Assembly (NCBI GenBank): GCA_964522395.1
Contig: CAZFVN010000002.1
Coordinates: 43,644-107,643, forward strand
Direction of reading: 5' to 3'
Length of the DNA stretch: 64,000 nucleotides
Source of the DNA: an uncultured Myxococcales bacterium
GTDB lineage: Bacteria; Myxococcota_A; UBA9042; CAIXZC01
Shown here piece by piece: positions 8,817 to 64,000 of this stretch; within the stretch, counting starts at the first letter, position 1; each line of letters begins with the position of its first letter. Position numbers and translations under genes: made by a program. The notes under the pieces were generated by a model. It saw nothing but the letters and a program-made list of their open reading frames with translations. It was not told the DNA's origin and searched no databases.

Positions 8817-8818
8817 TT

Positions 8819-8935: not shown

Positions 8936-8937
8936 AA

Positions 8938-13050: not shown

Positions 13051-13092
13051 AGTAGCAACCGGTGTGGACTCAAAGCCGCACCAGAGGAGTTG

Positions 13093-46543: not shown

Positions 46544-46608
46544 AGTACCGCTCAGGCAAGCGACCATGAAGTTCTCATTCAGTGACCGAAATCTGCCCGT
46601 CGGTTGCG

Positions 46609-49600: not shown

Positions 49601-51003
49601 GGGAAGTTGCCATCGATGCCGTCGCCATTTCCATCTTCTGGAACATCGTCCCCATCGTCATCTTCGTCAACGCAATCGGCCAGAGAATCGAAGTCGTAGT
49701 CAGGGAAGCCGTCGTCGAAGATAGTATTGCAGTCGTTGTCCAGGCCGTCGCATATCTCGGGTTGGTTGGAATCGCCTATGCAGACCACCGCGTTGTCACC
49801 TTCGCAGGCCCAGATGCCATTGGCACAAAAGTCGATGTCATCGCCGTCACAGGGTTCCCCTTTTTCGGGCCAGGGGTCGTCGGCCACGCCGTCGCAGTTG
49901 TCATCCTTGCCGTTGCAGATTTCAATGTAGGGCGGATCGTCGACGCAGTTCATCTGACCTTGAGCGTCACACTCCCAGGTTCCCTCAGCGCAGAGGTCAT
50001 CATCTTCTGGGTTGTCGCACTCCTCACCTAACCCCAGGAAGTCCTCATCGACTTCGCCGTCACAATCGTCATCTTCACCGTTGCATTGTTCGGGGCCGGG
50101 GAAGGGAGCTGGACAGAGCCATCCATCCGGACCCTGGCATACTTCATCTGCCGTGCAGGCGCCGAACTCGTTTTCGTTAGCGCACTCCTCTCCAACCAGC
50201 TCTTCATCCTTCTCGCCATCACAATCATTGTCGTTGCCATCACACACTTCTGGACCAGGGATTTCGGCGGAACATTCGCTCCACCCTGCGGCACCATCAC
50301 AGAGCCTCTCGCCAAAGCACTTGCCGAACTCATTCTCCTCTGAGCAGTCCTCCTGAGCGCCATTGAGTTCGCCGAGGCAGATACAGGAGCCGCTCTCCGG
50401 CAGACACTGGGCGAAGGTCTCATCGTCCACCGTCATTTCCTGGCAACTGTAGTCCTCCGGGCAGAGGCCTTCTTCCCCACAGGCAATGGCACAGCGAAGA
50501 TCACCGGCATTGCCTACGGCCAGACAGCGATCTTGAGGCGAACCACACTCCTTGTCTTCTTCGCAACTCTGGCAGAGGTCGGTTTCGGGTGGGGAGCAAA
50601 GATAGATGATGTCAGAGCCGACGTCTTTGCTCGTGCATTTCCAGTTGAGGGGGCACTCCGTCTCACAGTTGATGGTGCAAACGTCACCATACTGCTCAGT
50701 CGCGACGCAGTAGCTTGAGAGACAATCATCAGCCTCTTTGCAAGGCCAAAGGAAACCACCTTCTTCAGTGATAAGTTCGATCTCGGAGACCTGGATATCT
50801 AGATCTTCGAGCCACCAGAGTTCACTGATATCAACTATATCATCGGGGACAATGATGGTTGTATCGCTAGGTGGGGTCACCACCGAATCCATGATTCCGA
50901 CATCCTGAACGTCAAGGTCCCTGGAGGTCTCCTGTCCTGGGGTTGAGCAGGCCGAAATGAGGAGGACGAAGAGGGAGCGAAAAAGAGAGCGTGCTGTGAT
51001 CAT
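46609..51003 (-). CDS. Giant cysteine-rich lipoprotein of about 1464 aa. It holds EGF-like Cys-rich modules, thrombospondin type 3 Ca-binding repeats, about 10 MopE-type putative metal-binding repeats and a C-terminal PPC-like domain.
   Basis: The likely start is ATG 51003 (MITARSLFRSLFVLLISAC, lipobox LISAC). The track ORF extends to 51183. Repeated ~70-aa modules read GC..YY.D.D.DG.G...C.C...Y...GDCDD.D..V.PGA.E.C.G.DDDC.G..DE. There is also a CDDNCPANSNPLQDDGDGDGIGDVCDPDNDNDGTPD TSP3 consensus. Confidence 0.8.
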   Translation of the reverse strand: MITARSLFRSLFVLLISACSTPGQETSRDLDVQDVGIMDSVVTPPSDTTIIVPDDIVDISELWWLEDLDIQVSEIELITEEGGFLWPCKEADDCLSSYCVATEQYGDVCTINCETECPLNWKCTSKDVGSDIIYLCSPPETDLCQSCEEDKECGSPQDRCLAVGNAGDLRCAIACGEEGLCPEDYSCQEMTVDDETFAQCLPESGSCICLGELNGAQEDCSEENEFGKCFGERLCDGAAGWSECSAEIPGPEVCDGNDNDCDGEKDEELVGEECANENEFGACTADEVCQGPDGWLCPAPFPGPEQCNGEDDDCDGEVDEDFLGLGEECDNPEDDDLCAEGTWECDAQGQMNCVDDPPYIEICNGKDDNCDGVADDPWPEKGEPCDGDDIDFCANGIWACEGDNAVVCIGDSNQPEICDGLDNDCNTIFDDGFPDYDFDSLADCVDEDDDGDDVPEDGNGDGIDGNFPCAPPTLVVECDDNCALIPNPDQFDNDDDGLGDMCDDDDDNDGVKDPVDNCKLVPNVLQEDVDGDGDGDACDGDDDGDGVPDDGDNSGESGDNPCLPGEIQDCDDNCPANSNPLQDDGDGDGIGDVCDPDNDNDGTPDLQDCAPTDAAIFPGALEVCNGVDDNCDTLVDPEDSEGCQNFYIDVDKDNFGFAGFKKCVCGVDGSPPFTAVAFGDCNDSDPNIHPLAEEICNNIDDNCDEDVDNAGSTGCVLRYRDHDGDTYGLYADKKCVCGSKDEYSATQSGDCDDNDDKVYPGANEYCNGKDDNCNFKSDEDGSLGCNIYYLDEDSDGWGIFNYTKCTCQPSGSYDAENFGDCNDEDPEIFPGKTESCDGKDNNCNDLLDEPDSEGCILYYHDLDKDGWGNNAETKCLCSPKDFYTAKNGGDCDDTNPNVNTGKAEICNGWDDDCNGIVDDGTADCEIFYFDGDLDGYGDTGNSQCLCEAGQGYTTMLPGDCDDTNQGVHPGAEDLCNGIDDDCNGSVDGDGSSGCSPYYQDADNDGYGNSFKWQCLCGGEGIYTTTQGGDCDDNEKESNPGANELCDGIDNNCNDEVDEFGSDGCFPYFLDVDGDGFGITAATQCTCEPEGQYSAVLGGDCNDQEFFINPSVDELCDAIDNNCLGGIDEGFPDTDNDGVKDCLDDDIDGDGDPAGSDCDDEDPEINKFAEELCDERDNNCNGAVDEENAVGCQDHYYDGDQDKFGVSNNFKCLCAPFELYNTQQKMDCDDTKQYVFPGATEQCNSIDDNCNGSTDEGNAIGMCGKVKNGTPACEDGACVIEGCNTHFYDLNYLFGDGCECEEDVVDQDNEGNQCTNAYDLGTITQGDVAVNTFGNLAPGNDEDWYVFIATDTPGDDCNDFTLNAQLVDGASAFRFQIYKDGCDPVQNLLCKDGDIFHWTVNFYDGTDGGECPCSVAVGPAGTGHVAAPNKNKCKTFGGKYFVKVYRKPGVTVNCKVYQLQIKNGP
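47300..49080 (-). repeat. Coding tandem repeats: about 10 MopE-like CxxxDDDCDGxxDE-containing ~70-aa modules within the 46609-51003 gene.
   Basis: Recurrent CNGKDDNCN, CDGKDNNCNDLLDE, CNGWDDDCNGIVDD, CNGIDDDCNGSVDG, CDGIDNNCNDEVDE and CDAIDNNCLGGIDE, each preceded by GDCDD/GDCND and C.C. The coordinates are approximate. Confidence 0.6.
49190..49670 (-). repeat. Thrombospondin type 3-like Asp-rich Ca-binding repeats, coding, within the 46609-51003 gene.
   Basis: DNCALIPNPDQFDNDDDGLGDMCDDDDDNDGVKDPVDNCKLVPNVLQEDVDGDGDGDACDGDDDGDGVPD...CDDNCPANSNPLQDDGDGDGIGDVCDPDNDNDGTPD matches the DxDxDGxxDxxD...DNCPxxxNxxQxDxDxDGxGDxCD consensus. The coordinates are approximate. Confidence 0.55.
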
Positions 51004-51046
51004 ATTTCGTCCTCGCTGGTGGCCGGCGGCGGACCTCATCCTGGGT

Positions 51047-53188
51047 CTAGCCGTCGTTGATGCCATTGGAGAATTCGATCTGGTAGTCATCGCAGGCGAT
51101 GGCGGCCCCCGGTTTGCGGAATACTCTGATGTAGAAGTCTGCGGTTTGGCTGGTGCACTGGTGGGTCGTGGCGGAAGTGTCATCTTTGAAATTGTCAGGA
51201 GTCAGATTGTGGTCAGCGTCCGGTGCACAGGGACATTCGCCGCCGGGCGCATCAGGTTGGCCGGTTTCCGCATAGAAGTCTGTCATGTACTCGAAGAGGG
51301 TGGCCTCGCTGCAAAGATGGTCAGCCCCGGCGCAGCCGCCCCGGTAGACGTCGAATGCGTAGGCATCGTTGGGGTTCTTGAGGAGTCGCACTCGGACGTG
51401 GAAGGTGTCACAACCATCCGGATCCGGGCCATCGACCGCCTTGAACTTGTACCAGTCCGAGTCATCGACCGGCACCACCTTGCCGGTGCGGGAGGTAGAA
51501 CTGGAACCATCCCCCAGGTCGCCCAGGAATTCGGCATCGACACAGGTCTGGTTGGCTATCTCCGAGCCCTCCACCTGACATTCGCAGCCATCTGCAAAGG
51601 CCGAGTTGAGATCGTGGTAACCCTCTTCACAACTGTTGATAACGCAACCGTCCTGGCAAGCCACGTCGCCGTGGGCGATGACGCCGCAGCTTGTCACCGC
51701 TTCGCCTTCGTCAGTTTCGCCGTCACAGTCGTTGTCAACGCCGTCACAAAGTTCGACGACAGTGGGGTGGACGTCATAGTTGGTGTCGTCACAGTCGCCA
51801 CCTTTGATGGCGATGTAGTCGCCAATCTTGCCACAGAGGCATTTCAACTGGTCGGAGAGGCCGTAGCCGTCCTTGTCCTGGTCGAGATAGTAGGGGATGC
51901 AGCCCAGACCGTTTTCTTCGTCCATGACGCCGTCACAGTTATTGTCCTCACCATCACAGAGCTCTTCTGCGTCCGGGAAGGTATTGGGATTGGCATCGTT
52001 GCAGTCGTCAGCGGTCTTGGACCACTCGGAAGTCTCCTTACAGCGGCAATCGGTAATGGTGGGGTCGCCGAAGCCATCGCTGTCGCCGTCGTAGTACATA
52101 GTTTCGCAGCCGTCGGAAAAGGACTCGTCTGTATCGCCATCACAGTCATCGTCGAACTGGTTGCAGACCTCTTCAACTCCCGGGTTGACGCTGATGTTGG
52201 AGTCATCACAGTCACCACCCATGGATTCATGGTTGGCGCTGGGGGCTTCACATTCGCAGCTACCGGCGCCAATGCCGTAGCCATCTCCGTCCTGATCAAA
52301 ATACCAGGTGATGCACTTGAGTGAGTTGGGGGGGTCGATCTCCCCATCGCAGTTATCGTCGATGCCGTTGCACTCTTCTGGTTTGGGGTCCACCGCACTG
52401 CATTCCGTGAGGCCGTTGGCGTTGCAAACTCGCTCGCCGTGGCACTCGCCATACCCATTGACCTTCATGCATGTCGTGCTGGCACCCTCCTGAATGGCCT
52501 TCGTTGAGCACTCACACTCGCCGCCCGCTCCAGAGGGCACGCACTGGTGCGCGGTGCCGCCACCGTCAGTTGCGACTTCGGCGCAGACATAACCTTCCGG
52601 GCAATCGCCAGTGGCCGAGCAGTCGACCGCACAGAAGCTCCCGTTATCACCATGAGAGACGCAAAGGTCGTTGGCAGTGGAATATGCCGACTTACAAACG
52701 TCGTCTTCAGCGCAAGGATTGCAAAGGTAGACATGTTGCGGCAGGCAGATGTAGAGCACATCTGGCAGGGCCTGCTGGTCTTGTACGCATGCCCAGCCCT
52801 CTGGACAATCCTCGATGCAACCCTTCGAGCAAACCTTTCCGTCTTGCGTCTCGACGCAATAGCCGCTCACGCAATCGGAGTTATCTTCACAGTCGCAAAG
52901 GAACTCACCGGGGCCGGCACAAACTTCTACTTCGGGAGGAAGTTCCCCCGCTACGTCCGTCGGTTTCACGGTGTCAGTTCCAGTGTCGGCCGGCGGCACA
53001 TAGAACTCGTCCATGACATCGATACCGGTGTTGTCGGCGACGTCAATTGGCGTAGTGTCACCTGGTTTTACATCCCCTGGAGCTACATCTACGGATACTG
53101 CTGGACTAGACGAGCAAGCCATGGCCAAGAGCCAGACGATCAGCAGGGGCCAGCCTGCAACGACGTGATTCGAACGAATTGTCAGCAT
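51047..53188 (-). CDS. Cysteine-rich lipoprotein of about 713 aa with MopE-type repeats and a C-terminal PPC-like domain. It is a paralog of the 46609-51003 gene.
   Basis: The probable start is ATG 53188 (MLTIRSNHVVAGWPLLIVWLLAMAC, lipobox LAMAC), preceded by GGAGGGAAGG. The track ORF extends to 53629 without a signal peptide. Repeats CNGIDDNCDGEIDP, CNQFDDDCDGDTDE, CDGEDNNCDGVMDE and CDGVDNDCDGETDE. The C-terminus DDSDWYKFKAVDG...FYIRVFRKPG is homologous to the C-terminus of the neighbouring gene. Confidence 0.75.
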   Translation of the reverse strand: MLTIRSNHVVAGWPLLIVWLLAMACSSSPAVSVDVAPGDVKPGDTTPIDVADNTGIDVMDEFYVPPADTGTDTVKPTDVAGELPPEVEVCAGPGEFLCDCEDNSDCVSGYCVETQDGKVCSKGCIEDCPEGWACVQDQQALPDVLYICLPQHVYLCNPCAEDDVCKSAYSTANDLCVSHGDNGSFCAVDCSATGDCPEGYVCAEVATDGGGTAHQCVPSGAGGECECSTKAIQEGASTTCMKVNGYGECHGERVCNANGLTECSAVDPKPEECNGIDDNCDGEIDPPNSLKCITWYFDQDGDGYGIGAGSCECEAPSANHESMGGDCDDSNISVNPGVEEVCNQFDDDCDGDTDESFSDGCETMYYDGDSDGFGDPTITDCRCKETSEWSKTADDCNDANPNTFPDAEELCDGEDNNCDGVMDEENGLGCIPYYLDQDKDGYGLSDQLKCLCGKIGDYIAIKGGDCDDTNYDVHPTVVELCDGVDNDCDGETDEGEAVTSCGVIAHGDVACQDGCVINSCEEGYHDLNSAFADGCECQVEGSEIANQTCVDAEFLGDLGDGSSSTSRTGKVVPVDDSDWYKFKAVDGPDPDGCDTFHVRVRLLKNPNDAYAFDVYRGGCAGADHLCSEATLFEYMTDFYAETGQPDAPGGECPCAPDADHNLTPDNFKDDTSATTHQCTSQTADFYIRVFRKPGAAIACDDYQIEFSNGINDG

Positions 53189-53348
53189 CCTTCCCTCCCT
53201 CGACACGAGCAGCACGAGCGCGCACTTCGCGTTAGTTTGGAGTATACATTGCGCGCCTGTACGGGTCAACGAAAAGCGCCGCTTCGCTGCTGGCGTCCGC
53301 AACGCAAAGCTGGTAGCGTGGAAACCGACGAAAAAGGTGGAGGACTGC

Positions 53349-56087
53349 ATGACTGTGCACCGATGGCTTCTGCTTTTAAACACCGCGCTCCTCGTGTCCG
53401 CCTGCGGCCAGAGCGGGGATGGCGCTGTTTGCAGCACCGCGGTGAACCCCGGCGACCTCGTTATTACAGAAGTTTTTGTCGACCCGGCTGGACCGGATGG
53501 AGCAAAAGAGTGGATTGAGATCGTAAACGTCTCAAGTGTGCCGCAATGTCTCAATGGGCTCTTCGTGGAAGCCGCCGGAGCAACCGTCCGCCAGACGGCG
53601 CTTGAGGACTCGGACGACATCATCATCATGCCCAGCTCTTTTGCCGTCTTGAGCGGGGAAATGGGCCCCGTAGATGCCCTGGCTTACTGGGACACCGGCT
53701 TCGCTCTCCCCAGTACTGCAACCTCCCTTCGTCTCAAGCGCAGCAATGTTGTCATCGATGAAATTTCGTGGGGAGGCGAGGGCCAACCTTCACCTAAGGA
53801 GGGCAGGAGCCTTTCACTCTGTGCAGAATGTCTGGAGTCTAGCTGTAACGACGATCCCGACTGGTGGGCGATCGCCTCGGGAATGCCCTACGATAGTTCC
53901 GGCAACAGGGGTTCTCCGGGAACGCCGAACGGTACCTGCGCATGTCCCGCTCCTCCAGGCAGTACAGCGGTGCGGGCGCCGAAGGCCGGGGACCTTCTCA
54001 TTACTGAAATCTATGCCAATCCGCCTGGCACCGACGGCGACGCGGAGTGGTTCGAGATTCTAATCGTGGCCAAGGACGCGGCGATTGACTTCTCCGGCAT
54101 TGGTATCCGCCGTGAAATCGATGGGCCAGTAGTCGCCACCATAGATGCCGATCTCTGTCTCACCGGCACTCCGGATACCTATCTGACCCTCGGTCGAAGC
54201 CTGGACCCCGGGGCCAATGGGGGAATCACCCTCGATTATGCCTATGGCTCGGGTTTGACTCTTGCCAACGACGGCGGTTACGTGGGTCTGGTTCTCGGCG
54301 ACCAGCTTATTGCTGGCTACGCGTATGGCGAGGTGACGGATGGCCGCAGTCTCTCCTACGATGGGGGCAGCAAGGAGTGGTGCGATGGATCAATGCCATT
54401 TGGCGAAGAAGGGGGGTTTGCAACCCCCGGCTCACTCAATCCGCCATGTGGGGTGGCCACTTGCCTGCAAGGCGGTTTGCCGGTGACTGCCCAGGTGCCG
54501 TTGCCGGGTGAAGTAGAGATTGTGGAAGTGTTCCCCAATACTCCCGGCAAGGAGGTGCCAGAGCGGGAGTGGTTCGAAATCCGGGTCACCGGAGGCCGCG
54601 AGATCGATCTCAACGGACTGGAAATCTGGAACGACCCTGACGCCATCAACGCAATCCACACGATAGAGTCGGATAGCGGTGACTGTCTAAGGGTTCAGCC
54701 GGGCGGGCATGTTGTCCTCGCCCGCAGCGACATCGTCGTCCTCAACGGATTGCCGTCTGGCTCGATCATCGCGGTCTATGAAGCACTCTCCATGCAGAGC
54801 GAGGGTCACTTGCTGCTACGCTATGCCGGCAACACCATTGACGCGACGGACTGGATTCTCTCCGAGGATGGCCGGGCCGTGCAGAAGGACATCGCTACCG
54901 GTGATTGGTGCAGCGCCACCAAGAGCTACTGGACGACCCCGGAAAACAAGCTCGCGTTTGGTACTCCCGGGAGCCCCAATGAGTCCTGTGGTAGCGGTGG
55001 AACGTGTCAGTTTGGAGGTAGTCCGCGCCAACTCGTTTTGCCCTCCGAAGGGGAGTTGATCATCAATGAAGTTTTCCCTAATCCCGACGGCAACGATGTA
55101 GCTAACCGGGAGTGGCTGGAACTGGCGTTCGCTGAGTCCGCAATGGGCAAGAATCTCAACGGCATAGAACTCTTTATCAAGGGTGAGTCAAAGGGAATCA
55201 TCGGCGAGAATTCTGATGCTTGTGTCACCATTGAGAAACCCTTCCTGGTATTGGGCAAGAGTGCCGATACCGGCGTCACCGGCGGGGCCGAAATCGACAT
55301 CGTGATGGCCGGGTTGGCGCTCCCCAATAGCGACGTTAGTGTCACCTTCTCCCGGGCCCAGACCATCTACGATTTCATCTACTACAGCGATCCCGATGAT
55401 GGTGTAGCGATCCAACTGGACCCCGACTTCAAGGATATTTCTGCCAATGATTCACCTGACAATTGGTGCGATTCTCAAATAAGCTTCAATAACACTCCGG
55501 AGTTGGGTACGCCAGGGGCTGAAAACCCCTCCTGCAACGCGGTCTTCTGTATGGCTAACAATGAGGCGCAGGAACTACTTAAGCTCTATCCGGAGGAGGT
55601 TGTAATCACCGAAGTATATGCCAATCCCAAGGGAGCGGACGGTAAGAAAGAATGGTTTGAAATCTATGTTGAGCCGGGAGTAACCAAAGCGCACCTAAAT
55701 GGGGTCGGGATCATGAAGAAGGCGGGGGAGGAGCCAAGTTGGAGCTTCTCCACGTCGCAGTGCATTGAACTGGAAGGCGGGAACCACTACGTGCTCTGCC
55801 GCTCGGCCGATCCGACGGAAAACGGTGGTCTGACCGATTGCATCGAGTATGGCAGCGTCACCCTGGTCAATAGCGGTGGCGTAATCGGCCTCGGTAAACC
55901 CGGTGTGATCTATGACCTCGTGCCAGCCTATGGTGATGCCGACGACGGTGTCTCCCGCCAGCTCGACCCCGAGCATTACTCGGCAACGCAAAACGATTCC
56001 AAGGACAACTGGTGCGATACGCCCGCTTCCAGTACCTTCTCCGATGGTCGCGGAACCCCCGGCCAGAAGAATCCAGCTTGTAAGTAA
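53349..56087 (+). CDS. Lipoprotein with five lamin-tail-domain (LTD) repeats, about 912 aa.
   Basis: ATG 53349 lies after GGTGGAGGA. Signal peptide MTVHRWLLLLNTALLVSAC (lipobox). Five copies of the LTD N-terminal signature: DLVITEVFVDPAGPDGAKEWIEIVN, DLLITEIYANPPGTDGDAEWFEIL, VEIVEVFPNTPGKEVPEREWFEIRV, ELIINEVFPNPDGNDVANREWLELAF and VVITEVYANPKGADGKKEWFEIYV. Each is followed by a ~150-aa beta-rich unit with conserved CxxxxC. Confidence 0.75.
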   Translation: MTVHRWLLLLNTALLVSACGQSGDGAVCSTAVNPGDLVITEVFVDPAGPDGAKEWIEIVNVSSVPQCLNGLFVEAAGATVRQTALEDSDDIIIMPSSFAVLSGEMGPVDALAYWDTGFALPSTATSLRLKRSNVVIDEISWGGEGQPSPKEGRSLSLCAECLESSCNDDPDWWAIASGMPYDSSGNRGSPGTPNGTCACPAPPGSTAVRAPKAGDLLITEIYANPPGTDGDAEWFEILIVAKDAAIDFSGIGIRREIDGPVVATIDADLCLTGTPDTYLTLGRSLDPGANGGITLDYAYGSGLTLANDGGYVGLVLGDQLIAGYAYGEVTDGRSLSYDGGSKEWCDGSMPFGEEGGFATPGSLNPPCGVATCLQGGLPVTAQVPLPGEVEIVEVFPNTPGKEVPEREWFEIRVTGGREIDLNGLEIWNDPDAINAIHTIESDSGDCLRVQPGGHVVLARSDIVVLNGLPSGSIIAVYEALSMQSEGHLLLRYAGNTIDATDWILSEDGRAVQKDIATGDWCSATKSYWTTPENKLAFGTPGSPNESCGSGGTCQFGGSPRQLVLPSEGELIINEVFPNPDGNDVANREWLELAFAESAMGKNLNGIELFIKGESKGIIGENSDACVTIEKPFLVLGKSADTGVTGGAEIDIVMAGLALPNSDVSVTFSRAQTIYDFIYYSDPDDGVAIQLDPDFKDISANDSPDNWCDSQISFNNTPELGTPGAENPSCNAVFCMANNEAQELLKLYPEEVVITEVYANPKGADGKKEWFEIYVEPGVTKAHLNGVGIMKKAGEEPSWSFSTSQCIELEGGNHYVLCRSADPTENGGLTDCIEYGSVTLVNSGGVIGLGKPGVIYDLVPAYGDADDGVSRQLDPEHYSATQNDSKDNWCDTPASSTFSDGRGTPGQKNPACK

Positions 56088-56243: not shown

Positions 56244-56972
56244 ATGCTGGAAGGCCCCGAAAAAGTTACACTTTTTCTCGGAAACTACGGGAGCGGCAAG
56301 ACCGAAGTAGCGGTCAACTATGCGCTTCATCAAGCCGCTGGAGCGCCTTCTTGGAGCATTGCGCTGGCAGATCTCGATCTCGTCAATCCTTACTTCCGTA
56401 GTCGTGAACCGCGAGATCTCCTGGAAGCTGCCGGAGTTCGGGTGATTCTACCCGACCGAGAATACCACGATGCCGATTTACCCATCCTCGTTCCGGAGGT
56501 GCGCGCGGCGCTTACCGCCTCAACCGCCCATGTGATTCTCGACGTCGGTGGCGATGATGCTGGTGCGAGAGTACTGGGGGCGCTCACGGATGCTCTCCCC
56601 GAGGGTAGCTACCAGGCGCTGATGGTGCTTAACGGCAATCGGCCTTTCACCAGCGATGTGGCGGGCATCAAGAGAATCAGAAGCGATATCGAGCGGGCCG
56701 GCCGGATTCAGATTGGCGGTCTGGTTTCTAATACGCACTTGATGGAAGAGACGACTGTGGGGACGATCCTGGCCGGCTACCGGCTGGCCAAGGAGGCCTC
56801 GAGGGCCACGGGTCTCCCCCTTGAATTCGTCTGTGCCCCGGCGACGATGGTGGCGGAGGTTGCCGCAGCAATAGGGGAACCGGTGCTCCCCATCGTGCGC
56901 TATCTGGCCCCCTCCTGGAAGAACTCAGGGGGCGGTCGGGGCAATTTGGGAAAGGAACTCTTTCGACTGTAG
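56244..56972 (+). CDS. P-loop NTPase of unknown function, about 242 aa.
   Basis: ATG 56244 lies after AGGAGA. The track ORF starts at 56169. Walker A GNYGSGKTE. DVGGDD is a possible Walker B. It sits immediately upstream of the oxidoreductase operon. The family was not recognised. Confidence 0.5.
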   Translation: MLEGPEKVTLFLGNYGSGKTEVAVNYALHQAAGAPSWSIALADLDLVNPYFRSREPRDLLEAAGVRVILPDREYHDADLPILVPEVRAALTASTAHVILDVGGDDAGARVLGALTDALPEGSYQALMVLNGNRPFTSDVAGIKRIRSDIERAGRIQIGGLVSNTHLMEETTVGTILAGYRLAKEASRATGLPLEFVCAPATMVAEVAAAIGEPVLPIVRYLAPSWKNSGGGRGNLGKELFRL

Positions 56973-56980
56973 GAGCGACC

Positions 56981-57214
56981 ATGCCCAGGGTCAGAATCGA
57001 CAAGGATCGTTGCAAGGGATGCGGGCTTTGCGTGGACAACTGCCCGCAAAACGTCCTCGATATGTCCATGGAGATCAATGCCAAAGGGTACTTCCACTCA
57101 AGCCCGGTGCGGCAGCACCATTGTATCGGCTGCCGGATTTGCGCCATTGTTTGCCCCGACGTGGCGATTGAGGTTGCAGTGAATGGTGTCCAGTACCACT
57201 ACTTCGCATACTAG
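56981..57214 (+). CDS. korD: 2x[4Fe-4S] ferredoxin-like delta subunit of a four-subunit 2-oxoacid:ferredoxin oxidoreductase.
   Basis: 77 aa with two CxxCxxCxxxCP motifs (CKGCGLCVDNCP, CIGCRICAIVCP). It is the first gene of a delta-alpha-beta-gamma operon, as in oorDABC. Confidence 0.7.
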   Translation: MPRVRIDKDRCKGCGLCVDNCPQNVLDMSMEINAKGYFHSSPVRQHHCIGCRICAIVCPDVAIEVAVNGVQYHYFAY

Positions 57215-57223
57215 GAGCCAGTG

Positions 57224-58297
57224 ATGGGTAAGAGACTCCTGATGAAAGGCAATGAGGCCATCGGCGAAGCCGCGATCATAGCGGGTTGTCGAGCATATTT
57301 CTGCTATCCAATTACGCCTCAGACGGAAGTCGCGGAATATCTGGCGCGCCGCATGCCCGAGGTGGGTGGCGTCTTTCTGCAGGGCGAGAGTGAGGTAGCT
57401 GTAGCATACATGCTCTTTGGCGCTGCCGCGGGTGGACGCAAAGTCTTCACCACTTCGTCAAGCCCCGGCATCAGCTTGATGGCTGAGGGCATGTCCTATC
57501 TTGCCGCGGCGGAGTTGCCGGTGGTGATTGGCAATGTCATGCGCAATGGCCCAGGTCTGGGAGGTATCCTGCCCTGTCAGGCCGATTATTTCCAGGCAAC
57601 CAAGGGGGCCGGTCACGGCGATTATCGGTTCCTGGTGCTTGCCCCGGCATCTGTCCAAGAGGCAGTGGACATGATGATCCTCGGCTTCGAGTTGGCCGAG
57701 AAGTATCGGACCCCGGTGATGATCGTTGCCGACGGCATGATTGGTCAGATGATGGAGCCGGTGGAGATACCCGAGTTTGACAGTGAGCCCTCCCCCGACA
57801 TTGAGGGACACGAGGATTGGGCGACTATCGGTGCCAAAGGCCGAGGGCAGAATCTCGTTAAGACCCTCTACCTGAAACCGGAACAGTCCTGGGAACACAA
57901 CGTAAAACTGAAGGCGAAGTATGACCTCATCGAGGACAACGAAATACGCTATGAAGAGGTAGACACCGATGGCGATCTTGATGTCCTGATCGTCTCCTTT
58001 GGGACCATGGCCCGGATTTGCAAAACGGCCATGACCGAGATGAAGGAGCAGGGTGTCAAGGTCGGCATGCTACGTCCGCAGACGCTCTGGCCTTTCCCTC
58101 TGCAACGTATCCGGGAACTGGCGGCGCGGTCGAAGATTGTCTATTCGGTGGAACTGTCCATGGGTCAGATGGTAGAGGACGTGGACCGTGCAGTGCAGGG
58201 CCAGGCGCCGGTGCATTTCTACGGCAAGACGGGGGGGCTGGTCCCGATTCCAGCAGAGGTTACTGCAGCGATACTCGCTACGTTGGAGGATAAGTAG
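57224..58297 (+). CDS. korA: 2-oxoacid:ferredoxin oxidoreductase alpha subunit.
   Basis: The N-terminus MGKRLLMKGNEAIGEAAIIAGCRAYFCYPITPQTEV...GGVFLQGESEVAVAYMLFGAAAGGRKVFTTSSSPGISLM is the conserved KorA/PorA core. The 2-oxoglutarate versus pyruvate or other 2-oxoacid specificity is unresolved. Confidence 0.75.
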   Translation: MGKRLLMKGNEAIGEAAIIAGCRAYFCYPITPQTEVAEYLARRMPEVGGVFLQGESEVAVAYMLFGAAAGGRKVFTTSSSPGISLMAEGMSYLAAAELPVVIGNVMRNGPGLGGILPCQADYFQATKGAGHGDYRFLVLAPASVQEAVDMMILGFELAEKYRTPVMIVADGMIGQMMEPVEIPEFDSEPSPDIEGHEDWATIGAKGRGQNLVKTLYLKPEQSWEHNVKLKAKYDLIEDNEIRYEEVDTDGDLDVLIVSFGTMARICKTAMTEMKEQGVKVGMLRPQTLWPFPLQRIRELAARSKIVYSVELSMGQMVEDVDRAVQGQAPVHFYGKTGGLVPIPAEVTAAILATLEDK

Positions 58298-59047
58298 ATG
58301 GCCAACAAGATCTTCCAAAGGACCGAATCGACGGCCACCGCACATACCCACTATTGCCCCGGCTGTACCCACGGGATCATCCATCGCATGGTGGCGGAAT
58401 CCCTGGACGAACTCGGTTTGCATGATCGGGCCGTAGGCATCGCTCCCGTGGGTTGCTCGGTGCTGGCGTACAACTACTTCACTATTGATTTCCAGGAATC
58501 GGCCCACGGTCGCGCACCAGCGATGGCCACCGGTTTGAAGCGAGTCCGCCCTGAACTGATCGTCTTCACTTATCAAGGGGACGGTGATCTGGCCTCCATC
58601 GGCACCGGGGAGATTATCCACGCGGCCAACCGTGGCGAGAAGATCTGCGTCATTTTCGTGAACAACGCCATCTACGGCATGACCGGCGGGCAGCTCGCCC
58701 CCACCACCATGCCGCGGCAGGTGACGACAACTTCTCCGGCCGGTCGGGATGTTAGCGAAGTTGGACACCCTCTCAGGGTGGCTGAGATGCTGGCAACCTT
58801 GGCAACGCCGAGCTATATCGTCCGGACTGCGGTGCACACGCCAGCCTACATGGTGCAGGCCAAAGAGTGCATCAAACGGGCATTCAAGTATCAGGCTGAA
58901 GGGCGCTGCTTCTCCCTGGTGGAGATCCTCTCGACCTGTCCCACGAATTGGGGTTTGCAACCAACTGAAGCCACCGCCTGGGTTGAACAGAATATGGTTC
59001 CCTACTACAAGATCAAGGAATTCAAGACGCCGGAGATGGAGGGGTAG
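58298..59047 (+). CDS. korB: 2-oxoacid:ferredoxin oxidoreductase beta subunit (TPP-binding).
   Basis: YCPGCTHG Cys motif. TPP-binding GDGD...NN motif (YQGDGDLASIGTGEIIHAANRGEKICVIFVNNAIYGMTGGQ). Confidence 0.75.
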   Translation: MANKIFQRTESTATAHTHYCPGCTHGIIHRMVAESLDELGLHDRAVGIAPVGCSVLAYNYFTIDFQESAHGRAPAMATGLKRVRPELIVFTYQGDGDLASIGTGEIIHAANRGEKICVIFVNNAIYGMTGGQLAPTTMPRQVTTTSPAGRDVSEVGHPLRVAEMLATLATPSYIVRTAVHTPAYMVQAKECIKRAFKYQAEGRCFSLVEILSTCPTNWGLQPTEATAWVEQNMVPYYKIKEFKTPEMEG

Positions 59048-59049
59048 AG

Positions 59050-59604
59050 ATGCAATATGAAGTTGTCTTTGCCGGATTCGGTGGACAGGGCGTCATGATC
59101 GCCGGACAGATTCTCGCGCATAGCGCGATGGACGAAGGCTACAACGTAGTTTGGCTTCCTAGCTATGGGCCTGAAATGCGGGGAGGCACAGCCAATTGTA
59201 GCGTTGTCATCTCCGACAAACTTATTGCCTCACCCGTAGTCCCCACGCCTGGAGCTGCCGTCGTTATGAACAATCCCTCTTTGGATAAGTTCGGGGCTTC
59301 GGTCAGGCCCGGTGGCGTAGTCATCATAAATACTTCCCTGGTGAATGTGGAATGCGACCGGGAAGATATTACGGTGGTCTCCATTCCGGCCAACGAGATC
59401 GCCATTGAGTTGGGCTCCGGAAAGGCAGCCAACATGGTGGTCCTGGGGGCCTACGTGGGGGCTACTGATGCTGTCTCCATCGAGAATCTGAAAGCGTTCA
59501 TGCAGAAGAAATTTGCGAACAAGCCGCAGTTTGTCGGTCTTAACATGGAGGCCCTTCAGGCGGGCTACGACAGAGCCAAAGCGGCGATGCAGGAGGAGAA
59601 GTGA
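59050..59604 (+). CDS. korC: 2-oxoacid:ferredoxin oxidoreductase gamma subunit.
   Basis: 184 aa. FAGFGGQGVMIAGQILAHSA...YGPEMRGGTANCSVVIS is the gamma-subunit (pyruvate/ketoisovalerate oxidoreductase gamma family) signature. Confidence 0.7.
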   Translation: MQYEVVFAGFGGQGVMIAGQILAHSAMDEGYNVVWLPSYGPEMRGGTANCSVVISDKLIASPVVPTPGAAVVMNNPSLDKFGASVRPGGVVIINTSLVNVECDREDITVVSIPANEIAIELGSGKAANMVVLGAYVGATDAVSIENLKAFMQKKFANKPQFVGLNMEALQAGYDRAKAAMQEEK

Positions 59605-60056
59605 TGCCCTCGACAGATTATGCCGAGTTGCTGCAGAAGTACCCTCCCATTGAGGAGTCGCTCATCGAGATTCTTCACGATGTGCAACTGGCTCATCGTC
59701 ATCTGCCGCGGCCAGCCCTTGAGGCTGCCGCCAACTACTGTGAGATTCCTCTCGCCCGGGTCATGAGCGTGGCCACATTCTACAAGGCTTTCTCCTTTGA
59801 ACCAAAGGGCGATACAGTGCTCAAAGTCTGTATGGGTACGGCTTGCCACGTGAAGGGAGCCAGCCTGCTCCTCGACGAAGCTGAGCGCCTTCTGGGCTGC
59901 AAGTGTGGTGAAACCACCGAGGACCGGAAGTATACGTTGGAAGAAGTGAACTGTGTCGGTGCCTGTGCCATGGCCCCGCTGGTCATCGAGGATGAGCAAT
60001 ACCACGGGAAATTCAAACCCGTTGACATGAAGACTCTGCTCAAGACGGGGGAGTAG
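59604..60056 (+). CDS. NuoE/HoxE-like thioredoxin-fold [2Fe-2S] subunit of an NADH-linked diaphorase module.
   Basis: Cys pattern C-x4-C...C-x3-C (VCMGTACHVKGA ... NCVGACAMAPLV). The ATG overlaps the korC TGA as TGATG. Confidence 0.7.
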   Translation: MPSTDYAELLQKYPPIEESLIEILHDVQLAHRHLPRPALEAAANYCEIPLARVMSVATFYKAFSFEPKGDTVLKVCMGTACHVKGASLLLDEAERLLGCKCGETTEDRKYTLEEVNCVGACAMAPLVIEDEQYHGKFKPVDMKTLLKTGE

Positions 60057-60057
60057 A

Positions 60058-61908
60058 ATGAAACTGACGCTTGCGAATATCGACGGCTATCGGCAGGAGC
60101 TGGTGAATCGGCGCAAGGGATTGCAGTCCATCATGGTCTGCTGCGGTACCGGCTGCCGAGCCCGGAACGGGTTGGGAGTGGCTGAGGCCCTGGGTGAAGA
60201 GCTGGCGAAGAAGGACCTTGGTGAAGTGAAAGTGGAATTGACCTCTACCGGGTGTCACGGCTGGTGTGAGCAAGGTCCCATCGTCACCGTCGAGCCAGAC
60301 GGTATTTTTTATACTAACGTCAAGGCCGATGATGCCGCTCAGATTGTCGAGGCTTTTGAGGCGGGCAATCCGGTACAGAGACTGCTCTATCGAGACATCG
60401 CCACCAAGGAACGCAAGGTGACCTATCATGAGGTGCCCTTTTACTCGCATCAGACCAGGTGGGCGATGCGCAATGTGGGACGGATATCTCCGACTGACAT
60501 TGGTCACTACATCGTTCGGGATGGCTACATGGCGTTGGCGAAGGTGCTCTCCGGTATGAGCCAGGAGGCAGTCCTGGACGAGGTTGCAAAAGCTGGTCTG
60601 CGAGGTCGAGGTGGCGGCGGCTTTGATGCCGGCCGTAAGTGGCGCTCCGCAGCGCGAGCCAGTGGGAGCGAGAAGTACCTCATCTGCAATGGCGACGAGG
60701 GTGACCCAGGTGCGTTTATGGACCGGTCGATAATGGAGGCTGACCCTCATGGAGTGATTGAGGGGATGACTATCGGAGCCTATGCCATAGGGTCTTCCCA
60801 GGGTTACATTTACGTGCGGCAGGAGTATCCGCTTGCTGTCGAGAATCTTGAAAAGGCAATGGCCGATGCCCGGGAAATGGGGTTGTTGGGCGAGAACATC
60901 CTTGGAAGCGAGTTCTCCTTCGACATCAAGATAGCCCGTGGCGGCGGAGCTTTTGTTTGTGGGGAATCCTCAGCGCTGATGCGCTCCATTGAGGGCAAAG
61001 TTGGCGAGCCTCGAGCCAAATATGTTCATGCCACCGACAAGGGACTCTTCAATCGGCCGACAGTGCTCAACAATGTCGAGACCTTCATCTGTGTGCCCCT
61101 GATTATCGACAAAGGTGCTGCTCACTTCGCCGCTACCGGGACTGAAGGTTCCAAAGGAACCAAAGCGTTCTCGGTGGTGGGCAAGGTGAATTGCAATGGA
61201 CTCATTGAAGTGCCAATGGGGACCACTTTGCGGGAGCTTATCTTTGACGTTGCCGGTGGTGTCCCCAAGGGCCGCTCATTCAAAGCGGTTCAGACGGGTG
61301 GGCCTTCGGGCGGCTGTCTGCCAGAAGATCAGTTGGATCTTCCGGTAGACTTCGACACCCTGGCCGAGGCTGGCTCAATGATGGGCTCGGGCGGTCTCAT
61401 CGTTATGGACGACCGCAACTGCCTGGTGGACGTGGCCCGCTATTTCGTGAAGTTTCTGGTGGACGAGTCTTGTGGCAAGTGTGTGCCTTGTCGGGAAGGG
61501 CTCAAGCAGATGTTGGAGGTGCTGACCCGGATTACGACGGGTGAGGGTCGAGTAGAGGACCTCGCCACCATCGACAAGCTCTGTGATGTGCTCAAGGATG
61601 GTAGCCTCTGCGCCCTGGGGACGTCCGCTGCTAACCCGGTCCTGTCGACCCTGATGTATTTCCGCAGTGAGTATGAAGAGCACATTCGGGATGGGTTTTG
61701 TCGGGCTGGAGTTTGCGCCGCTCTCTGTTCTTACCATATCAACGAGAAATGCACCGGCTGTACGTTGTGTGCCAAGGTTTGTCCGGTGACCTGCATTACC
61801 GGCGAGAAGAAGAAGTTGCACCTTATTGAGCAGGAGGACTGCATCCAATGTGGTTCCTGCTTTGATGCCTGCCGGTTCGATGCCATTGAGATCAGGAGCG
61901 CGCCATGA
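60058..61908 (+). CDS. NuoF/HoxF/HndC-like NAD(H)- and FMN-binding subunit. It has an N-terminal [2Fe-2S] domain and a C-terminal 2x[4Fe-4S] ferredoxin domain.
   Basis: 616 aa. GRGGGGFDAGRKW and ICNGDEGDPGAFMDR are the FMN/NADH motifs of NuoF. ESCGKCVPCREG is the N3 cluster motif. The C-terminus holds CTGCTLCAKVCP and CIQCGSCFDAC. The N-terminus holds CCGTGC. Confidence 0.75.
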   Translation: MKLTLANIDGYRQELVNRRKGLQSIMVCCGTGCRARNGLGVAEALGEELAKKDLGEVKVELTSTGCHGWCEQGPIVTVEPDGIFYTNVKADDAAQIVEAFEAGNPVQRLLYRDIATKERKVTYHEVPFYSHQTRWAMRNVGRISPTDIGHYIVRDGYMALAKVLSGMSQEAVLDEVAKAGLRGRGGGGFDAGRKWRSAARASGSEKYLICNGDEGDPGAFMDRSIMEADPHGVIEGMTIGAYAIGSSQGYIYVRQEYPLAVENLEKAMADAREMGLLGENILGSEFSFDIKIARGGGAFVCGESSALMRSIEGKVGEPRAKYVHATDKGLFNRPTVLNNVETFICVPLIIDKGAAHFAATGTEGSKGTKAFSVVGKVNCNGLIEVPMGTTLRELIFDVAGGVPKGRSFKAVQTGGPSGGCLPEDQLDLPVDFDTLAEAGSMMGSGGLIVMDDRNCLVDVARYFVKFLVDESCGKCVPCREGLKQMLEVLTRITTGEGRVEDLATIDKLCDVLKDGSLCALGTSAANPVLSTLMYFRSEYEEHIRDGFCRAGVCAALCSYHINEKCTGCTLCAKVCPVTCITGEKKKLHLIEQEDCIQCGSCFDACRFDAIEIRSAP

Positions 61909-62660
61909 GTGAAATCACGCTAAACGGCAGATTGGTCAAGGTGCGCAAGGGAGAGTTTCTGCTTGCCGTGGCCCGGCGGGAAGGGGTCGATATCCCAACC
62001 CTTTGTCAACTCGATTCAGTCGAGCCGTCTGGAGCTTGCCGACTTTGCATGGTGGAAGTGACGAAATCTGAGTGGGATGGCTGGTCGAAGCTAGTGACAT
62101 CCTGCCTGTTTCCCGCTGATGACGGCCTGATTGTGACCACCGATTCTCCCCAGGTTTGCAAGACTCGTAAGGGGATCCTGGAGTTGCTTATGGCCCGGTC
62201 GCCCAATGCTCTACCTGTCCAGGAACTGGCGCGAGAGTATGGCATTTTGCAGTGCCCTTATCCTGTCGACCACCAGGGCGACAACTGCATCTTGTGCGAT
62301 ATCTGCACGAGGGTTTGTCAGAATCTGGTGACCGGCGCTATCGCCCGTATTGAAAGAGGGGTGGAGAAGCGGGTGGCGACTCCCTTTGAGGAGCCTACCC
62401 CCGACTGCATAGGCTGTCTGGCCTGCGCTAGAAGTTGCCCTACCGAGGCCATCGATTACCAGGATACAGGTGCATCGCGCACCATCTGGGGCAAGACCTT
62501 TGAAGTTGCGGCGTGCGGGGGCTGCGGTGCTCCAACGGTAACTGCAGAGCAGGTAGCCTGGATCGAGAAGAGCAAGGGAGTTTCCCAGGAAGACCAGTTG
62601 ATGTGTGACCGGTGCAAGGCGCAAAAGACCGCCGCTGCGTACCAGAAGCTGGCCTGGTAG
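61905..62660 (+). CDS. NuoG/HydA-N-terminal-like iron-sulfur subunit with [2Fe-2S], His-ligated [4Fe-4S] and [4Fe-4S] sites. It has no catalytic domain.
   Basis: 251 aa. ITLNGRLVKV...CQLDSVEPSGACRLCMVEV is a 2Fe-2S ferredoxin fold. HQGDNCILCDICTRVCQ is an HxxxCxxCxxxxxC motif. CIGCLACARSCP. It overlaps the stop of the previous gene as ATGA. Confidence 0.65.
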   Translation: MSEITLNGRLVKVRKGEFLLAVARREGVDIPTLCQLDSVEPSGACRLCMVEVTKSEWDGWSKLVTSCLFPADDGLIVTTDSPQVCKTRKGILELLMARSPNALPVQELAREYGILQCPYPVDHQGDNCILCDICTRVCQNLVTGAIARIERGVEKRVATPFEEPTPDCIGCLACARSCPTEAIDYQDTGASRTIWGKTFEVAACGGCGAPTVTAEQVAWIEKSKGVSQEDQLMCDRCKAQKTAAAYQKLAW

Positions 62661-62674
62661 GGAGGAGATAAGAG

Positions 62675-63088
62675 ATGGTATCAAAGTTGATGCACGTTAC
62701 TCCCAGCAAATGCACAGCCTGCCGTAATTGCGAGTTAGCTTGTGCCTTTGCTCATCTGCACGAAGGGCGCCCAACTACCGCCCGTATTCGAGCCTTCGCC
62801 GATGATGGCCAGCGTGAGGGACACAATGCAGTTGTAGTTTGCATGCAGTGCGAAGATGCTGGCTGCGTCAAGGCCTGCCCCGCCTTTGCCCTCTGGCGGA
62901 AGCCGGAGACCGGTGCTATTTATCATGTGCCTGAGCGCTGCATTCGTTGTCAATCCTGCGTTGCCGGTTGTTCCTTCGGCAATATGCGTTGGGAAGCGGC
63001 CATGGATTTCCCCACCAAATGTGACCTATGTAATGGCGACCCCGTTTGCGTGAAGTTCTGCCCCACCGCCGCCATCGAGTATCGGTAG
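62675..63088 (+). CDS. Polyferredoxin with four [4Fe-4S]-type Cys motifs.
   Basis: 137 aa. CTACRNCELAC, CMQCEDAGCVKACP, CIRCQSCVAGC and CDLCNGDPVCVKFCP. RBS GGGAGGAG. Confidence 0.65.
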   Translation: MVSKLMHVTPSKCTACRNCELACAFAHLHEGRPTTARIRAFADDGQREGHNAVVVCMQCEDAGCVKACPAFALWRKPETGAIYHVPERCIRCQSCVAGCSFGNMRWEAAMDFPTKCDLCNGDPVCVKFCPTAAIEYR

Positions 63089-63202: not shown

Positions 63203-63376
63203 ATGGAAAACAAAGTACTCATGGCAATGAAAGAAGCGGGCAAGCCAGTCCGTCCAGGCGATGTTGCCACTGCCCTTGGGGCCGACAAAGCCGAAGTATC
63301 CAAGGCCATCAAGGCCCTGAAGGCCACCGGGGCCATCCATTCCCCAAAGCGTTGCTTCTGGGAACCTACTTCCTAG
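63203..63376 (+). CDS. Small hypothetical protein of 57 aa, possibly helix-turn-helix.
   Basis: ATG 63203 lies 7 nt after AAGGAGGG. MENKVLMAMKEAGKPVRPGDVATALGADKAEVSKAIKALKATGAI. The call rests on a strong RBS only. Confidence 0.35.
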   Translation: MENKVLMAMKEAGKPVRPGDVATALGADKAEVSKAIKALKATGAIHSPKRCFWEPTS

Positions 63377-63386
63377 TACTCCACGG

Positions 63387-63974
63387 CTAGCGCTCCAATT
63401 TCAGCAGCTTCTTCAGGACCTTGTCGAGGAGTGAATCCTGGCCGGGCTCGTAGCGGTTGACGGGGTCCCAGGCTGGAGCTTCTGGAGGGGAGTAGACGTA
63501 GGAGTCTCGGGCTGGCTGGGGCGGCGGTGTGGCTGCTGCAGCAGCCGGTTTGGCCGTCGCCTTATCGGGTGCGGCAGTGTCCTTCTGTTCCTGTGCATTG
63601 GCGGCCGGCTTGCCGCCGCGACCGCGGCCGCCCCGGCGTCGGCGGCGTTTGGCGGCTTCGCTTAGTGGTTTTGCTTCACTACCATCGCCTGTACTCTTCT
63701 TCTTGCTGACTGCCGATTTGGACTCAGCGGCCTCGGCAGCAGGCTTCTCACCGTCGGCCTTCTTGCGGGGGCGCCTGCTCCGCCTGGGCTTCTTGGGGGT
63801 TTCGTCTTCGGCCTTGGCTTTTTCCGTGGTCGCACCGGTTTTTTTGGCCTTGGTTTCTGCTTTCGTCTCTGTTGCTTTGGTGCTGCCCCGGCGACCACGA
63901 CCTCGACCGGGGCTGCCCTTCTTGGCTCCGCCCTTCTTCGGTTCTTCGGTTTTGGTCTCTTCTGGCTTGGCCAC
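63387..63974 (-). CDS. Highly basic Lys/Ala/Glu/Arg-rich low-complexity protein, histone-H1-like. It is possibly longer, as the upstream part may run off the window.
   Basis: KKGGAKKGSPGRGRGRRGS...KKPRRSRRPRKKADGEK...RRRRRGGRGRGGKPA, with a conserved-looking C-terminus YVYSPPEAPAWDPVNRYEPGQDSLLDKVLKKLLKLER. The track start is a GTG 27 nt from the window edge. Confidence 0.5.
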   Translation of the reverse strand: MAKPEETKTEEPKKGGAKKGSPGRGRGRRGSTKATETKAETKAKKTGATTEKAKAEDETPKKPRRSRRPRKKADGEKPAAEAAESKSAVSKKKSTGDGSEAKPLSEAAKRRRRRGGRGRGGKPAANAQEQKDTAAPDKATAKPAAAAATPPPQPARDSYVYSPPEAPAWDPVNRYEPGQDSLLDKVLKKLLKLER

Positions 63975-64000
63975 CTGCTGCTTCGCTTCTTCTCGCTTTT

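Follow-up and report, generated by a model that had tools for sequence, protein, structure and literature searches.

A nine-gene operon joining a four-subunit 2-oxoacid:ferredoxin oxidoreductase to a Bfu core in an uncultured Myxococcales bacterium, a probable electron-bifurcating enzyme

A cluster of nine genes lies at positions 56244 to 63088, on the plus strand, of a 64,000-nucleotide stretch of DNA from an uncultured Myxococcales bacterium (GenBank assembly GCA_964522395.1, contig CAZFVN010000002.1, positions 43,644 to 107,643). The whole stretch, which ends at position 64000, is referred to here as the window. The genes, numbered g1 to g9 in order, encode a P-loop nucleoside triphosphatase (NTPase), the delta, alpha, beta, and gamma subunits of a 2-oxoacid:ferredoxin oxidoreductase (OFOR), the BfuC, BfuB, and BfuA subunits of a Bfu (HydABC-type) enzyme, and a polyferredoxin. 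Together they probably specify one soluble multisubunit bifurcating enzyme of the Bfu type, in which the four-subunit OFOR would serve as the module for the third substrate. An earlier, sequence-only reading of this DNA had proposed a dedicated electron path between 2-oxoacid oxidation, ferredoxin, and NAD(H), possibly with bifurcation, and this is still the best reading, given the B2 to B5 cluster sites of g7, the Wor-like character of g7 to g9, and the conserved linkage of the genes. Its statement that a catalytic partner was absent is misleading, however. Because nine genes in this order are found again in loci titled as several phyla, with the linkage of OFOR to Bfu genes kept across them, the OFOR itself would be the partner.

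Gene content and cofactor sites of the cluster

The list of open reading frames (ORFs) holds nine consecutive ORFs in this region. The tight, co-oriented arrangement described earlier stands, but the count of eight genes does not, since the list given with it sums to nine; the genes are also clustered rather than fused, as had been written. With the likeliest ATG starts, the gaps at the successive junctions from g1 to g9 are 8, 9, 0, 2, −1 (TGATG), 1, −4 (ATGA), and 14 bp, and the stop and start codons overlap at the boundary between the OFOR and Bfu genes (g5/g6). GGAG or AGGAG is found upstream of all nine start codons. Because consensus scans for promoters and terminators gave nothing above the shuffled expectation, we infer cotranscription of the nine genes from their spacing and synteny only; a scan for inverted repeats also gave nothing above chance. 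At the level of sequence, the nine-gene operon is confirmed as real, with a gene order beyond chance.

Domains were assigned with Pfam and NCBIfam, and the closest solved proteins were sought among all Protein Data Bank (PDB) sequences. The product of g7 (60058 to 61908, plus strand; 616 amino acids [aa]) is identified by its Pfam architecture and its best PDB match as a BfuB subunit similar to HydB and WorB. It contains the domains Complex1_51K (E value, 3e-44), NADH_4Fe-4S (5e-33), 2Fe-2S_thioredx (residues 18 to 100), and Fer4 (residues 560 to 611), with sites for flavin mononucleotide (FMN) and NAD(H), a [4Fe-4S] cluster (B1), a His/Cys-ligated cluster (B2), two further [4Fe-4S] clusters (B3 and B4), and an N-terminal [2Fe-2S] cluster (B5). 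The B1 ligands C472, C475, C478, and C518 are conserved, and the ligands of B2 to B5 (C28/33/66/70, H542/C548/C553, C565-575, and C595-605) are conserved in 15 or 16 of 16 orthologues. Nonbifurcating relatives keep FMN, B1, and the C1 cluster of BfuC but lack B2 to B5, and B3 and B4 are essential for bifurcation (PMC11829005). Every one of these extra sites, by which bifurcating B subunits are told from NuoF, HoxF, and FdsB, is present in g7, whereas the sites are missing from the nonbifurcating NAD-linked homologues in 5XF9, 6TGA, and 3IAM. The best PDB match of g7 is WorB (9mqx_B; 736 bits, alignment of residues 17 to 610), followed by HydB of the bifurcating hydrogenases, both NiFe and FeFe, and by NfnB; NuoF, in contrast, reaches ~340 bits and covers residues 130 to 550 only.

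The two other members of the trio are of the same type. BfuC is encoded by g6 (59604 to 60056, plus strand; 150 aa), a protein resembling NuoE and HoxE (PF01257; E value, 9e-44) with a site for the [2Fe-2S] cluster C1, and its residues C77, C82, C118, and C122 are invariant in the orthologues. BfuA is encoded by g8 (61905 to 62660, plus strand; 251 aa), which is matched over its full length by WorA (9mqx_A; phmmer E value, 4e-45) and belongs to Type 2. This protein resembles NuoG and HoxU in their N-terminal part only and combines sites for a [2Fe-2S] cluster and two [4Fe-4S] clusters (4 plus 8 Cys) with a Zn finger (CxxC...CxxC) and a C-terminal helix. A1, A2, and A4 are thus present, the Zn finger stands at the place of A5, and the segment separating the [2Fe-2S] domain from the 2x[4Fe-4S] domain has no additional cluster-binding Cys motif. 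In an AlphaFold2 (AF2) model of g8 (predicted local distance difference test score [pLDDT], 93), the C-terminal helix spans residues 235 to 250, with a tail of 14 residues. Foldseek superimposed this model on 9mqx_A with template modeling (TM) scores of 0.82/0.84 over 246 columns, a fit that takes in both the Zn finger and the C-terminal helix, and the next match had a TM score of 0.63. In the solved WorABCSL complex, the corresponding C-terminal helix of WorA recruits WorS (PMC12318220). By similarity and fold, the trio g6 to g8 is a Bfu core, most like WorABC. A plain NuoEFG module of complex I is ruled out by the N- and C-terminal extensions of g7, which are foreign to NuoF, and by the lack of membrane subunits, with no nuo membrane genes found within 10 kb of the cluster.

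Downstream of BfuA, g9 (62675 to 63088, plus strand; 137 aa) encodes a polyferredoxin of the WorS/CooF/HycB type (Fer4_11) with sites for four [4Fe-4S] clusters, and its 16 Cys residues are invariant in 13 of 13 orthologues. Its best PDB matches are WorS (9mqx_E; 103 bits) and AorA (8c0z_C; 102 bits), and among the NCBIfam families it best matches PadI, over the N-terminal 135 residues of that protein (96.9 bits). PadI serves as the beta subunit in the NADH-dependent phenylglyoxylate dehydrogenase, an NAD-dependent OFOR (NCBIfam NF045762 to NF045766). Positions 7 to 135 of its profile match g9, and positions ~144 to 435 match Por-type beta subunits, so that in PadI a g9-like module and an OFOR beta subunit are naturally fused, which supports docking of g9 on the OFOR. 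The g9 protein stops 5 residues past the CP motif of its last cluster; g9 homologues in loci taken to be Wor-type from gene order only carry a tail of ~25 aa similar to KRK..AEKFK..EEV. Because the ~25-residue stacking helix of WorS is missing from g9, a single 1:1 connector is expected rather than a filament. By analogy, we propose g9 as the connector between the OFOR and BfuA.

The OFOR is complete, with POR_N, PFOR_II, TPP_enzyme_C, POR, and Fer4 domains and all of its Cys ligands kept. Its delta subunit is encoded by g2 (56981 to 57214, plus strand; 77 aa), whose Fer4 domains provide sites for two [4Fe-4S] clusters; all 8 Cys residues are kept in 15 of 15 orthologues, and the best NCBIfam matches, OGOR_delta and OorD, both score under their cutoffs. 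The alpha subunit, encoded by g3 (57224 to 58297, plus strand; 357 aa, with an alternative GTG start at 57221), has the POR_N and PFOR_II domains and scores 499.7 bits against the VorB subfamily model NF005507, for which the cutoff is 399. The beta subunit, encoded by g4 (58298 to 59047, plus strand; 249 aa), has the TPP_enzyme_C domain, with sites for thiamine pyrophosphate (TPP) and one [4Fe-4S] cluster, and its residues C20, C23, C53, and C214 are unchanged in all 16 orthologues. The gamma subunit is encoded by g5 (59050 to 59604, plus strand; 184 aa; PF01558 POR, E value of 2e-43). The PorA and PorB models of NCBIfam give 107 and 72 bits on this OFOR, against cutoffs of 550 and 405. The OFOR of the window is thus assigned by profile scores and gene order to a VorB/Oor-like clade with the order delta-alpha-beta-gamma. 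As to its substrate, the NCBIfam match goes no further than the subfamily, and the closest PDB entries to the alpha subunit (1yd7/4wbx, 8ys5, and 6n2n), which are a Pyrococcus furiosus 2-keto-acid enzyme and two 2-oxoglutarate enzymes, are of mixed specificity and score modestly (150 to 212 bits). Overall, the cluster ligands of g2, g4, g6, g8, and g9 are conserved across the orthologues.

Conservation of the gene order and the associated NTPase

Gene order was compared among 80 loci obtained from a g7 scan of one genome per species and searched with the window proteins; taxa are given as titled. The order of the window (g1, delta, alpha, beta, gamma, BfuC, BfuB, BfuA, g9), here called type I, occurs in 16 of the 80 loci, two of which (L001 and L027) are on contigs that end early. 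These loci are titled as Myxococcales, Zixiibacteriota, Calditrichota, Ignavibacteria, Deltaproteobacteria, and Brocadiia, and their OFOR subunits are 47 to 72% identical to those of the window, or 85 to 92% in the close relative L001. The tails of type I BfuA proteins are 13 to 28 residues long and follow the pattern TAxxxxK[IL]xxW. A second arrangement, type II, accounts for 11 of the 80 loci, including Syntrophus/Syntrophaceae, Spirochaetes/Leptospira, Bacteriovoracaceae, and Actinomycetota. It has the order gamma, delta, alpha, beta, BfuC, BfuB, BfuA and lacks both g1 and g9; its BfuA ends at the Zn finger (...CPDHR) with no tail. The type II OFOR is only 23 to 30% identical to that of the window and is a genuine PorCDAB by the NCBIfam cutoffs (PorB, 407 versus 405 bits; PorC, 238 versus 225 bits). 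In a neighbor-joining tree of BfuB, built with no support values and not used to judge monophyly, type I sequences are grouped loosely, with other architectures nested within.

Several individual loci depart from these two patterns. One locus from a “Candidatus Brocadiia” metagenome-assembled genome (MAG) (L022, positions 5800 to 13200) has a window-type OFOR and BfuCBA with neither g1 nor g9; its delta-alpha and beta-gamma gaps are unusually long, and the next gene is YajC-like as judged by eye from its translation. In three Myxococcales/Myxococcota MAGs (L021, L025, and L043), BfuCBA sequences nested among type I in the tree are found with no OFOR match near them, and their BfuA proteins, at 277 to 289 aa, are slightly longer.

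The first gene of the cluster, g1 (56244 to 56972, plus strand; 242 aa), encodes a P-loop NTPase of the SIMIBI class with the Walker A motif GNYGSGKT. The homologues are also ~242 aa long, which supports the start at 56244. No Pfam, NCBIfam, or PDB sequence match was found for g1; an AF2 model (pLDDT, 84) has a SIMIBI-class fold, and its Foldseek matches, at TM scores of ~0.5, are the G domains of Ffh and FtsY, the Mrp/MinD-like AF2382, and the ATPase-type HypB. The g1 family is large, with at least 4399 clusters at 90% identity (E ≤ 1e-5) and 2157 clusters at 50% identity (E ≤ 1e-3), mostly annotated as hypothetical. A g1 gene stands at the head of the cluster in 12 genome loci, and three distant g1 homologues (47 to 52% identity), chosen because their metagenome contigs are long, each stand at the head of the same nine-gene cluster (3 of 3). 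More distant relatives occur elsewhere: three of them (P0316, P0357, and P0360; 38 to 42% identity) each make up the C-terminal domain in a Mur-ligase-like protein of ~670 aa, and another, in L087, adjoins a PAS/sigma-54 activator. Since these contexts are unrelated, only the close subfamily appears to be tied to this operon.

The g1 orthologues share no conserved Cys, so that carriage of a cluster or metal through Cys ligands is unlikely. That g1 carries Fe-S clusters or Ni, in the manner of Mrp, CooC, or HypB, is not supported, given this lack, the absence of family and PDB matches, and the generic SIMIBI fold. Our guess is that g1 does not carry electrons but acts in assembly or maturation in an NTP-dependent manner, and this is the weakest part of the model.

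Proposed electron path and alternative explanations

In the proposed mechanism, a 2-oxoacid and coenzyme A (CoA) would be oxidized at the TPP in the alpha and beta subunits, and the electrons would leave via the [4Fe-4S] cluster of beta, pass through the two clusters of delta, and then cross the four clusters of g9. From g9 they would enter BfuA, docked by its C-terminal helix as WorA is on WorS, and move along A4, A2, and A1 to the [B1-FMN-C1] flavobicluster of BfuBC. There the pairs would be split, with the high-potential pair reducing NAD+ at the FMN and the low-potential electrons going via C1 and B3/B4 to ferredoxin (Fd). The net reaction would be 2 (2-oxoacid + CoA) + NAD+ + 2 Fd(ox) → 2 acyl-CoA + 2 CO2 + NADH + 2 Fd(red). 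Because 2-oxoacid couples lie near −500 mV (PMC9304861), the oxidative direction would be favored. Coupling to NAD+ could sustain the oxidation when the ferredoxin pool is highly reduced or the substrate concentration is very low, and the same argument has been made for Wor-, Por-, and Codh-Bfu (Schut et al., PMC9304861).

Several observations weigh against this model. There is no obvious thermodynamic need to bifurcate from a donor already at the level of ferredoxin, a point that Schut et al. call unclear, and no OFOR-Bfu has been purified, the published Por-Bfu being bioinformatic only (PMC9304861). The contacts of g9 with the OFOR and with BfuA are drawn by analogy, the C-terminal helix of WorS has no counterpart in g9, and in the solved structure the partner of the N-terminal domain of WorS is WorL, not an OFOR (9MQX; PMC12318220). 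The absence of g9 from L022 indicates that the connector is not universally required. The Cys residues of the Zn finger are missing from four type I BfuA orthologues (L012, L030, L037, and L060) that retain the tail (TAxxxGKIxxW), which makes the tail appear to be under stronger constraint than the Zn site. Finally, g1 has only a generic fold match in addition to its lack of conserved Cys.

Among the alternatives, a nonbifurcating OFOR that reduces NAD+ only, as an analogue of PadEFGHI or of the NAD-linked AorABC, is unlikely but fares best. Electrons would then run from g9 through BfuA and FMN to NAD+, with B3 and B4 being vestigial or an optional ferredoxin port. Such a route is thermodynamically possible, since a 2-oxoacid could reduce NAD+ directly, NAD-dependent OFORs exist (NCBIfam models PadE, PadF, PadG, and PadI), and g9 does resemble both the N terminus of PadI and the AorA subunit of AorABC. 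However, the NAD module of Pad is different and a PadH-like gene is absent here, the highest-scoring structures all belong to bifurcating enzymes, and the ligands of B2 to B5, sites that the nonbifurcating NAD-linked homologues lack, are kept in nearly all of the g7 orthologues.

The codon overlap at the OFOR/Bfu boundary, together with an OFOR-BfuC-BfuB-BfuA-g9 order that is fixed across several titled phyla, argues against two cotranscribed but separate enzymes, a somewhat more remote alternative in which a ferredoxin-reducing OFOR would be accompanied by an orphan BfuABC and polyferredoxin linking free ferredoxin and NAD(H). The OFOR does retain its own delta, the normal ferredoxin-donating subunit, the connector is missing in L022, and the same caveat was raised for Codh-Bfu by Schut et al. 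(PMC9304861). Yet BfuABC without a module for a third substrate has no known activity, the tail of g8 corresponds to the element that recruits a WorS-type subunit, and in PadI an OFOR beta subunit is fused with a g9-like domain.

OFORs catalyze their reactions reversibly, and in a further alternative the same complex would run mostly backward, as a 2-oxoacid synthase in which NADH and Fd(red), by confurcation, drive the reductive carboxylation of an acyl-CoA for anaplerosis or CO2 fixation. This was proposed for Por-Bfu in gluconeogenesis (Schut et al., PMC9304861) and would suit locus L084, where the cluster has glycolysis/gluconeogenesis genes on one side and a citrate synthase gene on the other. 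It is the least probable alternative, because NADH (about −280 to −320 mV) and Fd(red) (~−500 mV) have a mean potential considerably higher than that of a couple near −500 mV (potentials from PMC9304861), so that NADH would make carboxylation harder than ferredoxin alone would, and because the window's own neighborhood gives no hint of a pathway.

The bifurcating OFOR-Bfu complex can also be given a broader interpretation, which we hold only tentatively. The cluster may represent a distinct and widespread nine-gene “Oor/Vor-Bfu,” made of a WorABCS-like plug and a non-Por OFOR and arisen independently of Por-Bfu. In this enzyme, NAD+ reduction might pay for ferredoxin electrons well below −500 mV or for oxidation against a fully reduced pool, and the NTPase might serve a novel function, either in assembly or in gating.

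If the bifurcating reading is true, an OFOR-linked Bfu enzyme would tie central carbon metabolism, through 2-oxoacid oxidation or synthesis, directly to the NAD(H) and ferredoxin pools at a fixed ratio, and redox balances would have to be redrawn for many anaerobes that have not been cultured, among them Zixibacteria, Ignavibacteria, Calditrichota, and Myxococcota-like MAGs. Of the classes of enzymes that perform flavin-based bifurcation, Bfu is the one least understood; to our knowledge, only hydrogenase, Nfn, formate dehydrogenase (FDH), Bam, and Wor members have been studied. The variant described here provides a defined eight-subunit target for expression and cryo-electron microscopy (cryo-EM), a docking hypothesis (the BfuA tail helix on g9, and g9 on the OFOR), and a tightly linked family of uncharacterized NTPases.

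Genomic surroundings and relation to known enzymes

The region beyond the window was viewed on public contigs of 154 kb and 264 kb that carry an identical g7 protein. The sequence-only reading had allowed that a hydrogenase or FDH catalytic subunit directly downstream would make this an ordinary operon of that kind. On the longer contigs, g9 is followed by a 57-aa ORF, a convergent RNase E/G gene, and genes for PHB_acc_N, DnaJ, metallophosphoesterase, and S1-domain proteins, with no hydA, fdhA, or nfn gene downstream of g9. A hydrogenase, FDH, or Nfn partner outside the window is ruled out by this convergent gene and the housekeeping genes. No aldehyde:ferredoxin oxidoreductase domain was found in the nine products or in the neighboring genes.

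The 57-aa ORF (63203 to 63376, plus strand) begins 114 bp 3′ of g9, has a strong ribosome-binding site (AAGGAGG), and gives a weak winged-helix (MarR_2) match; it is called as a gene on the longer contigs too and was not found beside the cluster in the other loci. At 63387 to 63974, on the minus strand, a 195-aa ORF rich in Lys, Ala, and Pro is part of the 721-aa RNase E/G gene that runs past the window edge. Directly upstream of the operon is a gene for a 916-aa LTD-domain protein, and the region from 44933 to 56087 also encodes a NadB-like flavoprotein (FAD_binding_2 and Succ_DH_flav_C) and two very Cys-rich minus-strand proteins with MopE Cu-binding and TSP_3 repeats. Farther upstream (524 to 40076, plus strand) stand ten consecutive co-oriented genes for proteins of 1193 to 1385 aa, which form two paralogue groups with identities of 73 to 82% within p1 to p6, 66 to 77% within p7 to p10, and ~59 to 66% between the groups. 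The first product, the sole one read, is Gly/Ala-rich with a signal-peptide-like N terminus, and the two genes of this array that were scanned gave no Pfam match. The products are probably secreted or surface proteins.

A literature search for a characterized OFOR-Bfu or OFOR-NuoEFG operon returned only two papers, both from the Adams/Li group. The Bfu family was defined by Schut et al. in 2022, who predicted from gene clusters in Dehalococcoides (with Dehalococcoides mccartyi 195 as an example) and syntrophic Proteobacteria a seven-subunit “Por-Bfu” of Type 2, in which the extra subunits feed BfuA via A4 (PMC9304861). According to Feng et al. (2025), Por-Bfu has no WorS homologue, and its BfuA is without the C-terminal helix although the Zn-finger motif is present (PMC12318220). 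The same study reports the cryo-EM structure 9MQX of the bifurcating WorABCSL from Acetomicrobium mobile, a tungsten aldehyde oxidoreductase in which electrons pass from the clusters of S through A4, A2, and A1 to B1 (PMC12318220).

In the core, WorABCSL is the closest of these systems: g7, g8, and g9 all find their best sequence match in it, as g8 does its best structural match, and the two have in common a Type 2 BfuA, with its Zn finger and C-terminal adaptor helix, and an S subunit with four [4Fe-4S] clusters. However, the window has a TPP-dependent OFOR in place of the tungstopterin subunit WorL, its g9 is without the helix that stacks WorS into a nanowire, and no g1-like NTPase has been reported for WorABCSL. 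Stand-alone OFORs of the OorDABC and VorB types agree with the window in having four subunits in this gene order, a TPP site, and three [4Fe-4S] clusters, whereas the window-type OFOR is preceded by g1 and followed by BfuCBA. The phenylglyoxylate:NAD+ oxidoreductase PadEFGHI also joins an OFOR to NAD+, and the polyferredoxin domain of PadI is the best family match of g9, but PadEFGHI lies outside the Bfu family and has a Por-like OFOR part, and the Pad equivalog models score far under their cutoffs on the window proteins.

Por-Bfu shares with the window the set of BfuC-BfuB-BfuA and a four-subunit OFOR with no other catalytic subunit, a short Type 2 BfuA with A1, A2, and A4 and with neither an H-cluster nor a pterin domain, and the same proposed logic of 2-oxoacid, NAD(H), and ferredoxin. 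As described, however, it fits the type II loci, with their PorCDAB, tailless BfuA, and lack of both a WorS homologue and g1. A 100-residue snippet of Dehalococcoides Por-BfuB is 55% identical to the window and 66% identical to a type II Syntrophus sequence, a comparison that discriminates weakly. Membership of the window cluster in Por-Bfu as described is ruled out by its OFOR clade, BfuA tail, and WorS homologue. The idea of an OFOR-Bfu enzyme is therefore not new, having been predicted as Por-Bfu (PMC9304861), and the present variant may already lie inside the “Por” clades 35 and 44 of Schut et al. What appears to be new is a second and apparently common architecture, with a VorB/Oor-like OFOR in delta-alpha-beta-gamma order, a helical BfuA tail, a WorS-like connector, and a SIMIBI NTPase.

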